Assembly: GCA_963557965.1 (NCBI GenBank)
Contig: CAUWEX010000005.1
Coordinates: 1,062 to 65,061 of the forward strand
DNA: 64,000 nucleotides
Origin: an uncultured Clostridia bacterium
GTDB taxonomy: Bacteria; Bacillota; Clostridia; TANB77; CAG-508
Reading direction: 5' to 3'
Shown here piece after piece: positions 1 to 51,349 of the stretch. Below the pieces are notes generated by a model that saw nothing but the letters and a program-made list of their open reading frames with translations, was not told the origin of the DNA and searched no databases. Made by a program: the position numbers and the translations under genes. Position 1 is the first letter of the stretch. Every line of letters begins with the position of its first letter.

Positions 1-3000
1 CTACAGTTGAAGCAGCTAGAAGTTTATTCACAGGATTACTATTTGATGAAAGAAGATATGACTTAGCAAAAGTAGGTAGATACAAATATAATAAAAAATT
101 AAATTTAGCAAATAGAATTACTGGATATGTTGCTTTTGATGATATCATGGATCCATCTACTGGAGAAGTTTTAGTAGAAAAAGATAATATCATTACAGAA
201 GAGATTGCCAATGAAATTCAAAATTCAGGAATTAACATTGTAGATATCAAAGTAAATGATAAAAAAGTAAGAATTATAGGAAATGGAACAGTAAATATAC
301 ACAATGTAGTAACAAACATTGATATTTCTGATTTACATTTTAAAGAAGAAGTAAACTATGCAGTATTACAATCAATACTAGAATCAACAGAAGAAAAAGA
401 CTTACATAAAGTATTAAAAGAAAGAAAAGGGGAATTAATTCCAAAACACGTAACAAACGAAGATATAATTGCATCAATAAACTACTTATTTAACTTAGAC
501 CATGGAATTGGTGTAATGGAAGACATAGACCATTTAGGAAATAGACGTATTAGATGTGTTGGAGAATTATTACAAAATCAATTTAGAATTGGTTTAACAA
601 GACTTGAAAGAGTAGTTCGTGAAAGAATGACAATACAAGACTTAGATGTTGTAACACCTCAAACATTAATAAACACAAAACCAATAACATCTGCAATTCG
701 TGAATTCTTTGGAAGCTCACAATTATCACAATTCATGGATCAAACAAACCCACTTTCAGAATTAACACATAAAAGAAGAATTTCAGCATTAGGACCAGGT
801 GGATTAACAAGAGAAAGAGCTGGATTCGAAGTACGTGATGTTCACTATACACACTATGGTAGACTTTGCCCTATCGAATCACCAGAAGGACCAAACATCG
901 GTCTTATATCTGCACTTTCTTGTTTTTCACAAATCAATGAATATGGATTTATAGAAACACCATATAGAAAAATTGATCCAGAAACACATCAATTAACAGA
1001 TGAAGTTGAATACATGAGTGCTGATGTAGAAGATAATTACATAATAGCTCAAGCATCAGAACCAGTAGATAAAGATGGAAGATTTATAAATCAAAGGGTT
1101 AGAGTAAGAAACAGAAATGAAGTTATAGAAGTTGACAGAGATAGAGTTCAATATGTAGACGTATCTCCAAAACAATTAGTTTCTGTAGCAGCAGCAATGA
1201 TACCTTTCTTAGAGCATGACGACGCAAAAAGAGCTCTTATGGGTGCCAACATGCAACGTCAAGCGGTACCTTTAATGGTAACAGAGAGTCCAATCGTTGG
1301 AACAGGTATGGAATATAGAGCTGCAAAAGACTCTGGAATTCTAATCTTAGCAGAAGACGATGGTGTAATTGAAAAAGTTACAGGTGATTATATTACTGTA
1401 AAATACAACAATGGAAAAACAGTAGTACATAAATTACGTAAATTCAAAAGAACAAATGGTGGAACATGTATTAACCAAAAACCAATTGTTAAAAAAGGTG
1501 AAATCGTTAAAAAAGGTGATGCAATAGCAGATGGACCATCAACTAAAAATGGAGAAATGGCACTTGGTAAAAACGTATTAGTTGCTTTCTCTACATGGGA
1601 AGGTTACAACTACGAAGATGCTATCTTAATTAACGAAAAACTTGTAAAAGAAGATGTATTTACATCAATTCATATCGAAGAATATGACTGCGAATGTCGT
1701 GATACAAAACTAGGAGCAGAAGAAATCACAAGAGATATACCAAATATTGGTGATGACTCATTAAAAGACTTAGACGAAAATGGAATTATCAGAATTGGTG
1801 CAGAAGTAAGGCCAGGGGATATCTTAGTTGGAAAAGTTACACCAAAAGGTGAAACAGAACTAACAGCTGAAGAAAGATTATTAAGAGCTATCTTCGGTGA
1901 AAAGGCTAGAGAAGTAAGAGATACATCATTAAGAGTACCACATGGAGAAGCTGGAACAATAGTAGATGTTAAAATATTTACTAGAGAAAATTCAGATGAA
2001 TTAGGACCTGGTGTAAATCAAATTATTAGATGTTACATTGCAACAAAAAGAAAAATATCAGTTGGAGATAAAATGGCTGGACGTCATGGTAACAAAGGTG
2101 TTATCTCAAGAGTATTACCAGAAGAAGATATGCCATTTATGCCAGACGGTACACCAATAGACATCTTATTAAACCCATTAGGTGTTCCTTCTCGTATGAA
2201 CTTAGGTCAAGTTTTAGAGGTTCACTTAGGTGGAGCTGCAAAAGCATTAGGATGGAAAATTTCTACTCCAGTATTTGATGGAGCTACAGAACAAGACGTA
2301 AGAGATTTACTAAAAGAAGCTGGAATGAGTGAAGATGGAAAAACTACATTATATGATGGTAGAACAGGAGATCCATTTGATAAACCAATTACGGTTGGTG
2401 TTATGTATATGTTAAAACTTCACCACTTAGTTGATGATAAAATACATGCTCGTTCAACAGGACCATACTCACTAGTAACACAACAACCACTTGGTGGTAA
2501 AGCACAATTTGGTGGACAACGTTTTGGAGAGATGGAAGTTTGGGCATTAGAAGCATATGGAGCAGCATACACATTACAAGAAATGCTAACAGTAAAATCA
2601 GATGACGTTGTAGGACGTGTTAAAACTTATGAAGCAATTGTTAAGGGAGAAAACATCCCAGAACCAGGAGTTCCAGAAAGCTTTAAAGTATTAGTTAAAG
2701 AACTTCAATCTTTAGGATTAGATGTACGTTTATATTCTGAAGATAACCAAGAATTAGAATTAAAAGAAAATATCGAAGAAGGTATAGAGTACGATCCTGA
2801 AAAAGATAAAAAAATCTTATCAGAAGATGAGGTTGTTGCAGAAGAGGACCTAAATGACGGATATGGCGAAGAAGTTGAAAACGACGTTTTATTAGAAAGT
2901 TCAGAACCTGAAAGTGATGAGTTATTTGAGGACTTAGACGATGAAGGAGAAGAATTTTTATACGGAAATGATTTAGCACAAGACAATATCGATAATGATG

Positions 3001-3014
3001 AAGATAATTTATAG
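1..3014 (+). CDS. rpoB: DNA-directed RNA polymerase subunit beta (5'-truncated by window edge)
   Basis: Frame is open from the window start (TVEAARSLF...[11 protein letters not shown]). Motifs [37 protein letters not shown] and [18 protein letters not shown] are present. Confidence 0.99.
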
Positions 3015-3142
3015 AAAGAAAACTAACTGAATAAATTTTAAAAAGGAAAGAGGCGACAGGAAGGAATTGCAAGAGCGGTGGTTAGTCCTCTTAACCTGTT
3101 TTAAAATTACCAAAACAAATTCGTACGAAGGGAGAATAATAA

Positions 3143-6100
3143 GTGGACGAATTAGATGTTTTTGATAAAATAAAAATTGGAGTTGCATCAGACGAAAAAA
3201 TAAGAGAATGGTCAAAAGGTGAAGTTAAAAAACCTGAAACTATAAACTATAGAACATTAAAACCAGAAAAAGATGGTTTATTCTGTGAAAGAATATTTGG
3301 ACCAACAAAAGACTGGGAATGCCACTGTGGAAAATATAAAAGAATTCGTTATAAAGGAATCGTTTGCGACAGATGTGGTGTTGAAGTAACAAAAGCTAAG
3401 GTTAGACGTGAAAGAATGGGACATATCGAACTTGCTGCACCAGTTGCACATATTTGGTATTTTAAAGGAATTCCAAGTAGAATTGCTTTAATGCTTGATA
3501 TTTCACCAAGAAACTTAGAAAAAGTTATATATTTTGCATCATATGTTGTAACAGACAAAGGAACTAGTGGTTTGGATAAATGCCAAATTTTAAATGAAAA
3601 AGAATATCACGAAGCACAAGAAAAATATGGTAGAGGTTCTTTTACAGCTAAAATGGGAGCAGAGGCTATTAGAGAGTTATTAGAACAAATTGATGTAGAA
3701 AAATTATCAGAAGAAATTAAAAAAGATTTAGAAACAGCAAGTGAACAAAGAAAAGTAAAATTAATAAAAAGATTAGATACAGTAGAAGCATTTAGACTTT
3801 CAGAAAACAAACCTGAATGGATGGTTATGAATGTTGTACCAGTTATTCCACCAGAATTAAGACCAATGGTACAATTAGATGGTGGTAGATTTGCAACATC
3901 AGACTTAAATGACTTATATAGAAGAGTTATAAACAGAAATAATCGTTTAAAAAGACTATTAGAATTAGGAGCACCTGAAATAATAGTAAGAAACGAAAAA
4001 AGAATGTTACAAGAATCAGTAGATGCTTTAATTGATAATGGTAGACGTGGTAGACCAGTAACAGGAGCTGGAAACAGACCATTAAAATCATTATCAGATA
4101 TGTTAAAAGGAAAACAAGGACGTTTCCGTCAAAACTTACTTGGAAAACGTGTTGACTATTCAGGACGTTCAGTTATCGTTGTTGGACCTGAACTTAAAAT
4201 ATATCAATGTGGTTTACCAAAAGAAATGGCAGTAGAACTATTTAAACCATTTGTTATGAAAGAATTAGTAGGTAGAGGAATTGCCCAAAACATTAAAAAT
4301 GCAAAAAGAATGGTAGAAAGATTAAGACCAGAAGTATGGGAAATATTAGAAGATGTTATAAAAGATCATCCAGTAATGTTAAACCGTGCTCCAACACTAC
4401 ATAGACTTGGTATTCAAAGCTTTGAACCAGTATTAGTAGAAGGTAGAGCTATAAAACTTCACCCATTAGTTTGTGAAGCGTTTAATGCTGACTTCGATGG
4501 AGATCAAATGGCCGTTCACTTACCATTATCACCAGAAGCACAAGCAGAATCAAGATATTTAATGTTATCTACAAACAACTTATTAAAACCACAAGATGGT
4601 AAACCAGTTGCAACACCTAGACTTGACATGATTTTAGGTTCATACTATTTAACAATGGTATTAGACGGAGAAAAAGGCGAAAATAAATACTTCAAAGACC
4701 CTGAAGAAGCAATTATGGCCTTTGAAAACCATGATGTAGGTATCCATGCTAAAATCTTTGTAAGAATTACAAAGGAAATAGACGGAGAAATGAAATCTAA
4801 AAAAATAGAGACAAGTGTTGGAAGAATTATCTTCAACCAAGGAATACCACAAGATCTAGGATTTATTGATAGAAATGAAGACCCATTCCAATATGAAATT
4901 AATTTCCCTGTTATGAAAAAATCAATGGGAACAATTATAGAAAAAGTAATTAGAACACACGGATTAACAGAATCTGCAAAAGTTATAGACTATATCAAAG
5001 CATTAGGCTTTAAGTATTCTACACTTGCTGGTATCACATTCTCAATGGATGACGTAAAAGTACCACCAGCTAAAAAAGACATATTAGCTCAAGCGGATGA
5101 ACAAGTAGAAACTGTTAGAAAACAATATGTACGTGGTTTAATAACTAACGAAGAAAGATACAATGCAGTTATTAACATTTGGGAGAAAACAACAAATGAA
5201 GTTAGTAAGGCAATGGAAGATAACTTCGATGAATTAAACCCAATATACATGATGGTTAAATCAGGAGCCCGTGGTAACATGAACCAATTACGTCAAATTG
5301 CAGGTATTCGTGGACTTATGGCTAGTACAACAGGTAAAGCCGTAGAAATTCCTATCAAATCATCATTTGCAGAAGGATTAGATGCATTAGAGTACTTTAT
5401 TTCTGCCCATGGTGCTCGTAAAGGACTTTCAGATACAGCTTTAAGAACAGCCGATTCAGGATACTTAACAAGAAGATTAGTTGATGTATCACAAGATATA
5501 ATTGTTAGAGAACATGATTGTGGAACAGATGAAGGTTATGTTGTATATGACATTAAAGATGGAAATCAAATTATTGAAAAAATGCAAGAAAGATTAGTTG
5601 GAAGATATGCTGTAAATAATGTATATCATCCAGAAACAAAAGAATTAATTGTTGATACAGATACAATGATTAATGAAAAAATTGCTGATGATATCGTTGC
5701 AGCTGGAATTGACAAATTAGAAGTACGTTCAGTACTAGGATGCCACTCAAAACGTGGTGTATGTCAAAAATGTTATGGTATGGGATTAGCAAGAAGAGAC
5801 TTAGTTTCAATAGGAGAATCAGTAGGTATAGTTGCTGCACAATCAATTGGTGAGCCTGGTACACAGCTTACAATGAGAACTATCCACTCAGGTGGTGTTG
5901 CAGGTGTAGCAGATATTACACAAGGTCTTCCTAGAGTTGAGGAATTATTTGAAGCTAGAAAACCAAAGGGATTAGCAATAATCACAGAAATAGCTGGTAA
6001 AGTAAAAATAAAAGAAACTAAGAAGAAAAAAGAAGTTATTGTAACATCTGGAGATGATTCAAGAACTTATACAATACCATTTGGTTCAAAAATGAAAGTA

Positions 6101-36437: not shown

Positions 36438-37640
36438 ATGGCAAAAGCAAAATTTGAAAGAACAAAGCCACACGTTAATATCGGAACAATTGGTCATGTT
36501 GACCACGGTAAAACAACAACAACAGCTGCTATTACAAAATATTTATCATTATTAGGAAAAGCTAAATTTGAAGCATACGATCAAATCGACGGTGCTCCAG
36601 AAGAAAAAGCTAGAGGTATTACAATTAATACAGCTCACGTTGAATATGAAACAGACAACAGACACTATGCACACGTTGACTGTCCAGGACACGCTGACTA
36701 TGTTAAAAACATGATCACAGGTGCTGCACAAATGGATGGTGCTATCTTAGTTGTTTCAGCAGCTGATGGACCAATGCCACAAACAAGAGAACATATCTTA
36801 CTTGCTAGACAAGTTGGTGTTAAATATATTGTTGTATATTTAAACAAATGTGATATGGTTGACGATCCAGAACTATTAGAATTAGTAGAAATGGAAGTTA
36901 GAGATTTATTATCAGAATATGGATTCCCAGGAGATGAAATTCCAATTATAAAAGGATCTTCATTAAAAGTATTAGAATCAACATCAACAGATCCTAATGA
37001 TCCAGTATATGCACCAATCAAAGAATTAATGGCTGAAGTTGATAGTTATATTCCAACACCAGAAAGACCAGTTGACCAACCATTCTTAATGCCAGTTGAA
37101 GACGTATTCACAATCACAGGTCGTGGTACAGTTGCAACAGGTAGAGTAGAAAGAGGAGAAATCAAATTACAAGACGAAGTTGAAATCATTGGTTTAACAA
37201 CAGAAAGAAAGAAAACTGTTGTAACAGGAGTAGAAATGTTTAGAAAACTATTAGACCAAGCAGAAGCAGGAGATAACATCGGAGTACTTCTACGTGGTAT
37301 TGATAGAAAAGAAATAGAAAGAGGTCAAGTTCTTTGTAAACCAGGAACAATTAATCCACATACAAAATTCACATCTGAAGTTTATGTATTAACTAAAGAT
37401 GAAGGTGGACGTCATACACCATTCTTTAATGGATACAGACCACAATTCTACTTCAGAACAACAGACGTTACAGGAGTTATCGAATTACCAGCAGGAACAG
37501 AAATGGTTATGCCTGGAGATAACGTATCTATGACAATCGAATTAATTACACCTATCGCTATCGAAAAAGGATTAAGATTTGCTATCCGTGAAGGTGGTAG
37601 AACAGTTGGTTCAGGAGTTGTAGCTGATATTATCGAATAA
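36438..37640 (+). CDS. tuf: Elongation factor Tu
   Basis: [26 protein letters not shown]. Confidence 0.99.
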
Positions 37641-37651
37641 TATTAGAATAA

Positions 37652-37690
37652 TAGTAAAAAGAAACACTTAAATGGTGTTTCTTTTTTACT
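37652..37690 (+). terminator. Terminator of the str operon
   Basis: AGTAAAAAGAAACAC-TTAAATG-GTGTTTCTTTTTTACT. Confidence 0.85.
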
Positions 37691-37714
37691 ATGGAATAAT
37701 AAAGAGCGTTATTG

Positions 37715-37743
37715 TTTACAATTATGTAAATTTGTGGTATAAT
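37715..37743 (+). promoter_or_regulatory. sigma-A promoter of GC-rich orphan 1, with overlapping palindrome
   Basis: TTTACA-17-TATAAT with extended TG; TTTACA-N4-TGTAAA inverted repeat. Confidence 0.7.
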
Positions 37744-37788
37744 ATTATTATGCTGCAATAAGGCAGCTGTTAGTAGAAAGGCAGAACA

Positions 37789-38298
37789 ATGCTAGAAAAA
37801 GACTACGAACAGACAGAACTTGTGGTTCTGTTGCTCGACAGGCTCGTTGAGAAGCGAGCAGAGGAGTTGTGCAAAGAGCACTACAAGTGGGAGGCTATCG
37901 ATCAGGTGTATGGACAGCTACACATGGAAGAGCGGTGCGGAGCAGAGAAAGCGTTGGGAGAACAGAACAAAGCTCACGCCGACGAATATCGGAAGATGGC
38001 AGACCTGCTACTTCGGATTCCATACGGAAAGGCTGCTTTATCTAAGCGAGATGTTGAGACTTTTGACAAGCTGATTACATTCTATGTTGATGACTTCTCT
38101 CGTCTCAGAGATGAAGAGACGGCTCGGATTAGAGCTCTTAAGCTTGTAAATGCGGACGAAAATTTTAGCAAGGTCCAAGCTTCAAAAAACATCTACCTTG
38201 AGACCAGGCAAGAACTCGGAGAGAAAGAGCAATACTTCCGAGCAGGTGTGAGCTGGCTCTCTAGTTTGAAGCTCGAACTTGAGAGTTCTGAGGAATAA
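37789..38298 (+). CDS. GC-rich orphan helical protein (169 aa)
   Basis: Open frame with RBS GAAAGG. Hand-counted 60-nt lines are 42-52% GC, far above the flanks. Has its own promoter and terminator. Confidence 0.75.
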   Translation: MLEKDYEQTELVVLLLDRLVEKRAEELCKEHYKWEAIDQVYGQLHMEERCGAEKALGEQNKAHADEYRKMADLLLRIPYGKAALSKRDVETFDKLITFYVDDFSRLRDEETARIRALKLVNADENFSKVQASKNIYLETRQELGEKEQYFRAGVSWLSSLKLELESSEE

Positions 38299-38330
38299 CG
38301 AAGAGCTTGCCTCTTGAAAGCGATTCTGCC

Positions 38331-38366
38331 AAGGTACCAGTTTTATTTAGACTGGTACCTTTTTTT
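38331..38366 (+). terminator. Intrinsic terminator of orphan 1
   Basis: AAGGTACCAGT...ACTGGTACCTTTTTTT. Confidence 0.88.
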
Positions 38367-38496
38367 GTGAAATATAATTAAGAGACCTTTTTTATTATTT
38401 TAAAGCCAAAAACACTTGCAATTTTAATAAAAGCATAATAAAATAAGTATATTATAAATAAAATTAAATAATACCAATAAAAATGGAGGAATCAAC

Positions 38497-39543
38497 ATGA
38501 AAATTATACTAGATGCCATGGGGGGAGATAACGCGCCAGATGCTAATATCAAAGGGGCAGTAAATGCTATAAATAAAGTAAAAGCTGAAGTTGTATTAGT
38601 TGGAAAAGAAGAAATAATAAGAAGCAAAGTCAAAGAATTCTATGGAAAAGAAATTGAAGAGATATCAGATAGATTAAAAATAAAAAATGCTACTGAGACA
38701 ATAGAGATGGAAGATACTCCAACAGTTGCAATAAAACACAAAAAAGATTCATCAATGGTAGTAGGGTTTAAAATGCTTAAAGAGGATGAAGGAGATGTAT
38801 TTATTTCCGCTGGAAATTCAGGAGCATTACTTACAGGAGCAACTTTAATTGTTGGAAGAATTAAAGGAATAGATAGACCTGCGTTAGCAGGGATACTACC
38901 AGCATACAAAAGTCAATTACTACTAATTGATGCAGGTTCTAATACAAACTGTAAACCAATTAATTTACTACAATTTGCACAAATGTCTAGTATTTATTTA
39001 AAAAATACATATGGAATAGAAAAACCTGCAATAGGCTTGCTAAATATAGGGACAGAAGAAACTAAAGGGAATGAATTAGTTAGAGAAAGCTATCAATTAT
39101 TAAAAGAAAAATCAGAAGAACTAGGGATAAATTTTGTAGGAAATGTGGAAGGAAGAGATGCATTTTCAGGAAAAATACATGCAATTGTAACAGACGGTTT
39201 TACAGGAAATGTATTTTTAAAAACTACAGAAGGACTAGGAAAATTTGTGAAAAAATCTTTAACAGAAAGTTTTACTAAAAATATTTTGGCAAAGATTTTA
39301 TCTATTCCTGCATTACCAGCATTAAAAAGATTTACAAAAGTAATGGACTATAAATCATATGGAGGAGCACTATTCTTAGGAGTAAAAAAACCAGTGGTAA
39401 AAGCTCATGGAAGTAGTGATGCATTGCTTTTCGAATATACAATAATTCAAGCAGAAAAATTTGTAGAAAATAAAGCAGTAGACAAAATGAAAGAAGAATT
39501 TGAAAAACAAAGAGAAAAAGAGAAAAAACAAGAAAATAAATAG
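38497..39543 (+). CDS. plsX: Phosphate acyltransferase PlsX
   Basis: DAMGGDNAP, SAGNSGA, DGFTGNVFLK, KAHGSS. Confidence 0.97.
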   Translation: MKIILDAMGGDNAPDANIKGAVNAINKVKAEVVLVGKEEIIRSKVKEFYGKEIEEISDRLKIKNATETIEMEDTPTVAIKHKKDSSMVVGFKMLKEDEGDVFISAGNSGALLTGATLIVGRIKGIDRPALAGILPAYKSQLLLIDAGSNTNCKPINLLQFAQMSSIYLKNTYGIEKPAIGLLNIGTEETKGNELVRESYQLLKEKSEELGINFVGNVEGRDAFSGKIHAIVTDGFTGNVFLKTTEGLGKFVKKSLTESFTKNILAKILSIPALPALKRFTKVMDYKSYGGALFLGVKKPVVKAHGSSDALLFEYTIIQAEKFVENKAVDKMKEEFEKQREKEKKQENK

Positions 39544-50408: not shown

Positions 50409-50557
50409 AAACATTTGGATATTGGCATTATCAAGAATACAAAGATGTTGCTATATTGCAAGAAATCTTTGATCACTCATCTTCATCAGTTACATTAAGA
50501 TACATAGGAATAAATCAAGATGTAATTGATAAATCATATATGAATTTTAGTTTGTAA
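50408..50557 (+). pseudogene. C-terminal remnant of a phage-type tyrosine recombinase/integrase
   Basis: Hand translation [49 protein letters not shown] matches integrase box II (RKTFG...HS...T.RY). It has no start and no 5' part. Confidence 0.85.
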
Positions 50558-50584
50558 AATTTTGGTTTGTAAAATTTTGGTTTG
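50543..50584. repeat. 15-bp tandem repeat (~2.8 copies)
   Basis: AATTTTAGTTTGTAA AATTTTGGTTTGTAA AATTTTGGTTTG. Confidence 0.8.
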
Positions 50585-50618: not shown

Positions 50619-50704
50619 ATTGAACATAGGAAATGAGAATAAGCAGATGTGGTTTCCACTTTACATATAACAGAGGTCAACTCTGGGAAAGTGAGGTGGT
50701 GCTT

Positions 50705-50809
50705 ATGATAGAATTTCTAATGTTTCTAATTATAGGACTAATGATTTCAACAACCATAAACGTAACCTTATTAGCAATTATATTTATACAGTGGACAAAT
50801 AAGGAATAA
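50705..50809 (+). CDS. Putative type I toxin, 34-aa single-TM peptide (missing from ORF track)
   Basis: MIEFLMFLIIGLMISTTINVTLLAIIFIQWTNKE; RBS GAGGTGGTG; structured 5' leader; convergent antisense promoter. Confidence 0.75.
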   Translation: MIEFLMFLIIGLMISTTINVTLLAIIFIQWTNKE

Positions 50810-50896
50810 ATAAAAAACACATCTGTGATTTGACCGTTATAGATGTGTTTTTACCCTATATCGTGGCAAACCACGTTTGTGGTTTCTCCATTTCAT
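50806..50896 (-). ncRNA. Putative antisense antitoxin RNA (~85-90 nt)
   Basis: Lies between the minus-strand promoter and the bidirectional hairpin 50812-50852, which has a U-run on the minus strand. Ends are estimated. Confidence 0.65.
50812..50852. terminator. Bidirectional terminator hairpin of the TA module
   Basis: AAAAAACACATCTGTGA-TTTGACCG-TTATAGATGTGTTTTT. Confidence 0.8.
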
Positions 50897-50961: not shown

Positions 50962-50990
50962 TTGCAAAAATTGTAAATATATGTTATAAT
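50962..50990 (+). promoter_or_regulatory. sigma-A promoter of GC-rich orphan 2
   Basis: TTGCAA-17-TATAAT with extended TG; spacer contains TGTAAAT. Confidence 0.7.
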
Positions 50991-51048
50991 TATATATGTA
51001 TTATATTAATAAGGCTTGAGCATATCAAGCCTACAATTAAGGAGAGAC

Positions 51049-51234
51049 ATGCAAGACCCTCAAAAAACTGAAAGTTACAATCCGAAAGAGCTTGAGTCTA
51101 TGTATGCGGCTATCAAACGCGCACAGGAAGAAGCAGAAAATATTATCTGTGCCGGATTTGATGGTCGCGATAACGCATATGTAGAGATGCAGATAATGGA
51201 AGATCAGGTTTTTGCCATTATCTATCCCTGCTAA
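51049..51234 (+). CDS. GC-elevated orphan small protein (61 aa)
   Basis: ATG 51049 follows AAGGAG; a hand-counted line is 43% GC; has its own promoter and terminator. Confidence 0.65.
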   Translation: MQDPQKTESYNPKELESMYAAIKRAQEEAENIICAGFDGRDNAYVEMQIMEDQVFAIIYPC

Positions 51235-51247
51235 GACTCTCCGAGCA

Positions 51248-51289
51248 CCCCTCACTTTTACACTTTAGTAAGAGTGAGGGGGATTTTTT
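51248..51289 (+). terminator. Intrinsic terminator of orphan 2
   Basis: CCCCTCACTTTTAC...GTAAGAGTGAGGGG then ATTTTTT. Confidence 0.85.
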
Positions 51290-51349
51290 GTATAGACTAA
51301 AACAAATTGGAAAAAATAATATTAATACATAAAATAAAGGAGGGCATAT

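Follow-up and report, generated by a model that had tools for sequence, protein, structure and literature searches.

A GC-rich orphan gene cassette at the tuf-plsX locus of an uncultured gut Clostridia bacterium, headed by an apparently order-specific promoter box

Extended −10 sigma-A promoters of the form TRTGnTATAAT are common in low-GC Gram-positive bacteria, and stem-loops at the 5′ end protect mRNA 5′ ends in Bacillota. Among accessory genes, the systems closest to the locus described here are phage morons, as defined in the excerpted text of PMC3594210; the species-specific orphan genes (SSOGs) of gut bacteria (Vakirlis and Kupczok 2024, PMC11293555), whose GC content, in the excerpted parts of that study, agrees closely with that of conserved genes, with lower values in virus-like orphans; and putative mobile promoters (Matus-Garcia, Nijveen and van Passel; PMC3575422), presented in the excerpts of that paper as homologous non-coding stretches, some of them identical over 100 bp. 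The DNA analyzed here is a 64,000-nt stretch (the window) of the genome of an uncultured Clostridia bacterium. Between its fusA-tuf and plsX-acpP genes lies a stand-alone unit, cassette 1, consisting of a promoter, an orphan open reading frame (ORF) of 169 codons (ORF169) and a terminator. With a probability of roughly 60%, we read cassette 1 as a moron-like chromosomal accessory unit that joins a promoter class native to the order to a compositionally foreign ORF, in a hot spot between tuf and plsX. What is new here is GC-rich orphan cassettes in a spore-forming lineage of Clostridia, with a defined, order-wide promoter box.

Cassette 1 resembles a phage moron in being an autonomous promoter-gene-terminator unit with a GC content far from that of its neighbours, and in being absent from the same position in relatives, with the conserved flanking genes undisturbed. 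It differs in lying on the chromosome, outside any phage or prophage (the best match in PHROGs has E 0.028 and IMG/VR holds none), and in having a promoter that appears to be native to the order and not imported with the gene. The likeness to the SSOGs, as they appear in the excerpts, is that of a gene confined to one gut species cluster, without relatives and with signs of conservation, whereas the GC content of ORF169 is 18 points above that of the genome and its GC content at third codon positions (GC3) 34 points above. As in the excerpted account of mobile promoters, similar promoters precede non-homologous genes both within the genome and between species, but the promoters described below have only a core of about 30 nt in common, with unrelated flanks. 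By eye, about 24 of 25 nt agree in the best-matching pair (C9 and C5). A short shared core between unrelated flanks fits a selected motif better than copies of one sequence. Compared with extended −10 promoters, the class has the same −35 TTGnnn, 17-nt spacer, TG at −15/−14 and TATAAT, and adds a conserved TTATGTAAAW at −27 to −18.

An earlier reading of the window, made from the sequence only, had described a complete stand-alone unit between tuf and plsX, and every element of it was found where that reading had placed it. The elements are given below, with the edges of the variable spacer; coordinates are positions in the window, and the stretch examined for cassette 1 is 37715-38367.

37656..37692, + strand: tuf terminator with a perfect 12-bp inverted repeat (37656-37667 / 37675-37686) ahead of a T run; bounds the variable spacer on the left
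37715..37743, + strand: putative cassette 1 promoter, sigma-A-type, 11 of 12 consensus positions, 17-nt spacer
37715-37720, + strand: −35 element TTTACA of cassette 1, from the promoter scan
37722-37731, + strand: spacer box of cassette 1, TTATGTAAAT, the box being defined from promoter comparisons
37733-37736, + strand: TGTG of cassette 1, with the TG itself at 37735-37736
37738-37743, + strand: −10 element TATAAT of cassette 1, from the promoter scan
37752..37767, + strand: 5′ leader stem-loop GCUGC-AAUAAG-GCAGC, from the centroid structure in RNA folding
37771..37781, + strand: ribosome-binding site (RBS) word TAGTAGAAAGG, with two same-frame stop codons, then the Shine-Dalgarno sequence; the ATG follows 7 nt later
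37789..38298, + strand: ORF169, the 169-aa orphan ORF, with an ATG start, an isoelectric point (pI) of 5.05 and a predicted four-helix bundle
38331..38367, + strand: intrinsic terminator of cassette 1, a 13-pair stem (38331-38361) and a T run
38416..38444, + strand: plsX promoter (TTGCAA, 17 nt, TAAAAT), kept in congeners; bounds the variable spacer on the right

The unit has its own promoter and its own terminator. By sequence, the promoter conforms to the extended −10 type of sigma-A promoter (a −35 like TTGACA, a spacer of 16-18 nt, TGn and TATAAT) and would start transcription near 37750. The leader hairpin is weak (−8.2 kcal/mol, z = −0.87; 38 of 200 shuffled sequences were equally stable) and the terminator is strong (z = −4.96 for the 77-nt stretch 38296-38372, with none of 200 shuffles equally stable). 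The RBS word TAGTAGAAAGG has four copies in the genome, each placed 6-8 nt ahead of a GC-rich ORF's ATG. Despite these four of four it was rejected as a mark of the cassettes: in relatives it precedes native AT-rich genes, among them rplR, rplS and dnaJ, and order-wide its 33 matches against 15 in controls amount to an excess of about twofold. It is an RBS of host type. With promoter and RBS both of host type, the foreign-looking part of cassette 1 is essentially the ORF alone.

That part stands out clearly. The genome has a GC content of 28.5%, and its 1295 crudely called ORFs have a mean GC of 0.287 and a mean GC3 of 0.171 (sd 0.058), compared to 0.469 and 0.506 in ORF169. In windows of 300 nt, GC is 0.43-0.49 within ORF169 and 0.27-0.37 around it, and the adjoining genes have about 0.30-0.35, which bears out the earlier description of a GC-rich ORF in AT-rich surroundings.

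ORF169 is a coding gene and a true orphan, confined to its own species cluster. A word-indexed search of 5.8 billion proteins returned three clusters, at 98, 89 and 82% identity and all of 169 aa, and a HMMER pass over 1.84 billion representative proteins gave one match, the representative of ORF169's own cluster. The four forms (82-98% identical) align without insertions or deletions, with substitutions that are mostly conservative by eye, and the frame has a codon periodicity, with G at 38% of codon position 1 and A at 43% of position 2. From the four-row alignment AlphaFold (AF2) predicts four helices of 34-40 residues, with a predicted local distance difference test (pLDDT) score of 79.6 and a predicted template modelling (pTM) score of 0.70; the model from the single sequence was poor (pLDDT 46). 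The constant length, the codon periodicity and the AF2 model argue for a real coding gene, and its product is predicted to be a four-helix bundle. The protein is acidic and by eye has neither a signal peptide nor a membrane span.

No significant match to ORF169 was found in Pfam, PHROGs, PADLOC or NCBIfam, or among PDB sequences. A Foldseek search with the model gave nothing significant in the PDB (best E 0.68) or BFVD (best E 0.21), and a search of the ESM Atlas returned generic helical rows only. There was no real match among the 40 relatives searched, the sole one having 28% identity and E = 0.002 within a 558-aa frame. The earlier reading had named a donor with a near-identical copy as the sign of ordinary horizontal gene transfer; no such donor was found, and the search gave no relative in GTDB species genomes, IMG/VR or phage records. 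Two other candidate origins were rejected: the four alternative-frame ORFs of cassette 1 have no Pfam match that would suggest overprinting, and blastn, tblastn and tblastx against the own genome match only the cassette itself, with no native source for its DNA. Nothing points to the hypermutation of the ORFs that had been suggested.

The synteny of tuf and plsX is kept across the genus, and the locus was compared at 17 congener loci where both genes were seen. At 13 of them the spacer is 131-270 nt long and contains the tuf terminator and the plsX promoter only, and at one it is 353 nt. The other three carry inserts different from cassette 1, namely 749 nt with an AT-rich ORF (G016), 929 nt with a frameshifted pilin-like gene (G021, L032) and 995 nt with a small ORF that stands behind a box-like promoter and adjoins an XRE-type gene (G043, L022). 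At nine further loci, other genes lie at most 1.5 kb upstream of plsX. A hairpin and a T run directly follow tuf in every congener spacer inspected by eye, and the block ACTTGC...AATAATAAAAT precedes plsX in all those inspected. The box promoter is absent from all 13 short spacers; because these lack the ORF as well, promoter, ORF and terminator are gained and lost as one unit. The look at related genomes for which the earlier reading had called thus finds the site empty in most congeners and otherwise filled in some, and the tuf-plsX spacer appears to be a chromosomal hot spot. The tuf-plsX slot of G006 (L004) holds a reverse-transcriptase-like gene, named by eye from its N-terminus.

The second line of evidence concerns the promoter. 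The exact 29-nt promoter pattern of the sequence-only reading has two matches in the 1.34-Mb genome, in cassette 1 and in a second orphan unit farther along the window, cassette 2. The TGTAAAT shared by the two is part of the TTATGTAAAW box, directly before TRTGnTATAAT, and the two promoters are alike beyond the sigma-A consensus, as had been claimed. In the wider genome, 5 of 22 GC-rich units (described below) have TGTAAA[AT]-N5-6-TATAAT among the preceding 160 nt, compared with 1 of 1116 background ORFs, taken as those of at least 100 aa with GC3 < 0.30 (Fisher p = 1e-8). The stricter TGTAAAW-N2-3-TG-N-TATAAT has four matches (C3:69761, C5:38850, C5:52110 and C7:59622) among the 326 TGnTATAAT sites of the genome, and all four head GC-rich orphans, so that the enrichment for which a genome scan had been proposed was indeed found. 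TGnTATAAT by itself precedes 9 of the 22 stand-alone GC-rich units and 63 of the 1116 background ORFs.

The box extends far beyond this genome. Across the genus, the TGTAAAW form has 166 matches in 40 of 41 genomes (9 for the reversed-pattern control); across the order, the pattern with TTA added in front has 294 matches in 95 of 121 genomes (control 1); and in other genomes of the class Clostridia the same pattern has 8 matches in 8 of 193 genomes (control 2). A narrower form was searched in the 2.9 million contigs of IMG/VR, where 20 contigs have one match each, and with these 20 single matches only, a phage origin of the promoter was rejected. In 45 aligned instances, the −35 TTGnnn lies 4-5 nt upstream of the box, and the TTA before TGTAAA is conserved at 82-87% though the search pattern did not demand it; conservation is low beyond a core of about 30 nt (about −35 to −7), and the flanks are unrelated. 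The order-wide excess over the control and the conservation of the unrequested TTA mark the box as a real element, and the motif TTGnnn, N2-3, TTATGTAAAW, N2-3, TG, N, TATAAT would define an order-specific subclass of sigma-A promoters. A literature search with the box word and "promoter" found no bacterial promoter study describing it, and the box is apparently undescribed.

In relatives, box promoters mostly precede small stand-alone genes, most of those inspected being unfamiliar by eye. With ORFs taken from a crude caller, the median GC3 of box-driven ORFs was 0.264 (n = 33) compared to 0.147 (n = 122) in neighbours at the same loci (p = 1.6e-7 by the Mann–Whitney test), and GC3 was at least 0.25 in 17 of the 33 and 19 of the 122. 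The leaders of box promoters (45 nt from 6 nt after the −10) fold more stably than shuffled sequences, with a mean z of −1.21 and z < −1 in 22 of 44 (Wilcoxon p = 9e-6); a comparison with generic promoters comprised four cases only and is uninformative. Within the order, the box thus seems to be linked preferentially, in a statistical sense, to compositionally atypical accessory genes. In one relative, G007 (L111, C16:27000-34500), four tandem single-gene units of 191-214 aa, at about 1680-4671 and with N-termini alike by eye, lie between an aldolase-like and a cysK-like gene (names given by eye); the three upstream units stand behind box promoters, and GC3 is 0.22, 0.19, 0.30 and 0.38 in order. 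Should they be paralogous, the copies may differ in age or origin.

The GC-rich units were collected from the 31 of 1295 crude ORFs with GC3 of at least 0.35 by removing spurious-looking frames and tRNA overlaps and adding three GC-island entries, with curation by eye. The resulting 22 transcription units, with 23 proteins, are scattered over the genome and accord with the dispersed set of unrelated ORFs that the sequence-only reading had anticipated. Most stand alone, with a consensus-like promoter and a short leader hairpin ahead of the gene and a terminator behind it. Five have families (purA, DapH-like acyltransferase, GH13, NUDIX and beta-flower), and there is one weak C39-like match; for the remaining proteins no family was found in family-library searches, and no paralogy was detected among the GC-rich proteins (best blastp E 0.06). 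Of two orphans searched further, C16 matched its own clusters only and C12 only unnamed relatives at 32-37% identity. These two are orphans or nearly so, and some members of the set are ordinary enzymes. The idea of a conserved expression chassis stands in part. The box is tied to GC-rich units, but a minority of them carry it, and the order-wide class also heads genes of normal AT content. Co-regulation of the cassettes, as the earlier reading proposed, was not supported.

Two of the enzymes are themselves stand-alone units. The purA match, above the NCBIfam cut-off, is at C15:5339-6655 of the genome under study (G000) and has a GC of 0.43; the DapH-like acyltransferase, at C9:6059-6751 with a GC of 0.42, has no close relative in the genome collection, and its box-like promoter, compared by eye, agrees with that of cassette 1 at about 24 of 25 nt, TA replacing TG. 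Both units have the look of metabolic genes acquired as xenologs, whether as replacements or as additions. The genome also has a type IV pilin-like multigene family with the N-terminus KGITLIALVITIIVLLILAGVSIAMLTGENGI and GC-rich 3′ ends, several members of which are at contig ends (C7:62173-62645, C22:23843-24388, C14:1-320, C25:14447-14830, C1:113282-113663 and C17:30483-31016).

Cassette 2 lies between spo0A and orf112 and comprises the following elements.

50962..50990, + strand: putative cassette 2 promoter, TTGCAA, AAAT, TGTAAAT, ATA, TG, T, TATAAT, from the pattern match
51013..51033, + strand: 5′ leader stem-loop of 8 pairs, from RNA folding
51049..51234, + strand: 61-aa orphan ORF, GC 0.41, GC3 about 0.40, pI 4.2
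51248..51289, + strand: intrinsic terminator with a 14-pair stem, from RNA folding

Its 60-nt leader folds at −16.2 kcal/mol (z = −4.19, none of 200 shuffles equally stable), and its terminator has z = −4.69 over the 64-nt stretch 51232-51295. The word AATAAGGC, which the sequence-only reading had noted in both leaders, is present in both, but it has 34 copies in the genome and by eye occurs in none of the other leaders inspected, and we do not count it as shared architecture. The 61-aa ORF has no family in Pfam, PHROGs, PADLOC or NCBIfam and no homolog among the 29 congener loci searched. Here, too, the site varies within a constant frame: orf112 and an M23-peptidase gene are syntenic genus-wide, and the gap between spo0A and orf112 is 942 nt in this genome, while G011 has about 180 nt there and G021 about 265 nt. 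G000, G010 and G021 have a common backbone sequence at the site and diverge in content after the same point, where G000 has cassette 2, G010 has another unit, complete with promoter, terminator and an 88-aa lipoprotein-like ORF, and G021 reaches orf112 in 87 nt. The cassette 2 site is thus empty in G021, as it is in G011.

In the empty site of G021 (L186), 19 nt (TTGGAAAAACTTTTAATA-like) resemble window positions 50962-50980 and 51310-51330; by eye they agree at about 15 of 19 positions with the −35/box portion of the promoter of cassette 2, and the right flank of the cassette is similar as well. A target duplication, a promoter made out of native sequence and low-complexity chance could each account for the likeness. 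Between spo0A and cassette 2 there are also a short tandem repeat at 50520-50565, of some three gtttgtaaaattttg-like copies with the last one partial (by eye), and a further small unit at 50633-50852, a 58-aa hydrophobic ORF with a terminator of its own behind it.

Sequence nearly identical to tuf-cassette 1-plsX recurs in sequencing runs. Some part of it was found in 20 runs, which belong to 13 studies on animal gut or related samples, and 16 runs contain at least half of its words. Contigs from three runs span the region from the 3′ end of tuf (37587-37611) through cassette 1 to 38800, where the compared stretch ends, with 2-3 differences. In one metatranscriptomic library, a 478-nt contig equals 37876-38353 exactly and ends inside the terminator stem, and the next contig is shallower, which is a weak hint of transcription and termination of cassette 1. 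Two observations were set aside: one RNA-library run (X16) without contig cover over 37657-37860 is evidence of nothing, and a contig of another (X12) that skips 37630-38497, with unspecified letters between, is too weak to be taken for an empty site. A further metagenome contig (L033:636-1505) matches window 37599-38468 over 870 nt at 99.9% identity, covering the 3′ end of tuf, cassette 1 and the plsX promoter, within unrelated AT-rich flanks that are absent from this genome and with glnS downstream; this genome has no glnS, a 26%-identity match elsewhere being the only one. The contig may represent a real transfer of the host fragment, but its left junction falls at the recurrent assembly break at 37587-37611, and it was treated as a likely co-assembly chimera and not used. 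In the whole 64-kb window, no Rfam family reached its gathering score; given its size and gene content, the window seemed unusually bare in this respect, a judgement made without a baseline.

As a moron-like accessory unit, cassette 1 would work as follows. The near-consensus sigma-A promoter would drive it, the leader stem-loop may protect the 5′ end of the mRNA, and the host-type RBS would start translation of an acidic, cytoplasmic 169-aa protein, the predicted four-helix bundle, while the strong intrinsic terminator would insulate plsX. The box most likely binds a regulator or makes an additional contact with RNA polymerase, as it is conserved in a spacer that normally varies freely. ORF169 most likely entered from an unsampled source and would now travel or persist with signals of the order's own type. 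As for its function, a dispensable niche or conflict factor is our guess.

Several points weigh against this reading. Neither a donor nor a transfer mechanism was found, composition being the sole ground for horizontal acquisition, and the 82% homologs imply an age at which the GC3 of ORF169 has nevertheless not decayed toward the 0.17 of the host, which is awkward for a simple recent transfer. The box is present at only 5-7 of the 22 GC-rich units and also precedes genes of normal AT content, including, by their look, coaD and a helicase; the link is a statistical one that does not hold in every case. Selection of the GC-rich units was done by eye on the output of a crude ORF caller, and p-values are overstated because kinship makes the genomes less than independent samples. 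Other Clostridia are probably richer in GC, which lowers their counts of an AT-rich 21-mer, and controls near zero cannot calibrate this effect. The contigs from the RNA library, finally, may derive from DNA, and contigs do not measure expression level.

In an unlikely alternative, the GC-rich orphans were never imported and form a native, hypervariable and fast-evolving class of small genes at fixed intergenic positions, whose GC is kept by selection on mRNA or protein or by GC-biased gene conversion at hot spots of recombination. No donor for ORF169 was found among billions of proteins, promoter and RBS are order-native and congeners reuse the sites with different contents, and for these reasons a native origin is favoured more than usual. 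The results for C16 and C12, the length of ORF169 kept down to 82% identity and the four tandem units of G007, with GC3 from 0.19 to 0.38, are in keeping with it. However, no known mechanism keeps GC3 at 0.5 where the genome stands at 0.17, no frame of the cassette DNA has a source elsewhere in the genome, and some of the GC-rich units are standard enzymes that resemble ordinary xenologs. A native ORF169 would, moreover, be an exception among gut SSOGs, given the close GC match between these and conserved genes in the excerpted text (PMC11293555). The ordinary enzymes and the lack of a mechanism for holding GC3 favour import, which is the likelier origin. A rather improbable and speculative reading is that box promoter and 5′ stem-loop form a lineage-wide regulon or platform for hypervariable, persistently GC-rich orphans in fixed slots of reduced AT-rich genomes, with the box read by a regulator.

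A dedicated capture chassis, in which box promoter and 5′ hairpin form a platform whose foreign ORFs are swapped by specific recombination of an integron- or Xer-like kind, is very unlikely. It would account for unrelated ORFs behind one promoter class, for the different units at the same backbone point in G000 and G010, and for the likeness between the empty site of G021 and both the −35/box and the right flank of cassette 2. In addition, TTATGTAAA is identical to the XerD-side arm of the B. subtilis dif site as given in the excerpted text of PMC4845504. Outside promoters, however, TTATGTAAA is unenriched (40 copies compared with 106 for the reversed word), and with a likeness of 9 nt on the XerD side only, against the 28 nt of a full XerC/XerD-type site, no partner arm and no 3′ copy, we rejected a dif/Xer reading of the box. 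The promoter is absent wherever the ORF is absent, and promoter similarity ends outside the core of about 30 nt. Direct repeats flanking 17 units are 10-15 nt long, at chance level (mismatched-flank controls have a mean of 11.8, and 54% reach at least 12), and the same holds for the 12-nt repeat CTTTTTTAYTAT around cassette 1, rejected as a target-site duplication. There is no tyrosine recombinase or integrase on the contig of the window, the 10 matches in the genome (some of them fragments of broken genes) all being on other contigs, and no serine recombinase was found in the genome. Cassette 1 has no transposase ORF, no att-like site was found at it, and no phage gene is nearby. It stands alone and not in an array. 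Integron cassettes carry an attC site at the 3′ end and are usually promoterless; cassette 1 has its own promoter, and its 3′ hairpin is a plain terminator with a T run. The searches for recombinases and the repeat controls agree with the earlier statement that no transposase, att site or target duplication is visible, and no mobility or capture mechanism for the cassettes was found.

That the two promoters are alike merely as strong sigma-A promoters in AT-rich DNA can hardly be maintained. Both do fit the extended −10 TRTGnTATAAT, and TGnTATAAT is itself enriched before GC-rich units, but the box is about 300-fold over the reversed control order-wide, its conserved TTA was not demanded by the search, and the few TGnTATAAT sites of this genome with the box are all at GC-rich orphans. 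Least credible of all is a structured non-coding RNA with an incidental open frame: stable RNAs often account for GC-rich islands in AT-rich genomes, and promoter and terminator belong to the unit itself, but Rfam gave only weak, chance-level matches at E up to 10, the 169-codon frame is free of indels down to 82% identity and periodic in its codons, an RBS stands 7 nt before its ATG, and the helical-bundle model is confident.

If the reading of cassette 1 as a moron-like accessory unit is true, an order of uncultured gut Clostridia would have a defined promoter element in a normally unconstrained spacer, which would provide a route to its regulator and regulon, and the box promoter would be usable as an expression part for these organisms. 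Foreign-looking coding sequence behind lineage-native signals would bear on how newly arrived genes come to be expressed, or on whether such orphans are imported at all. Fixed intergenic slots such as tuf-plsX and spo0A-orf112, empty in some genomes, filled in others and alternatively filled in yet others, would be material for the study of gene turnover in small genomes.

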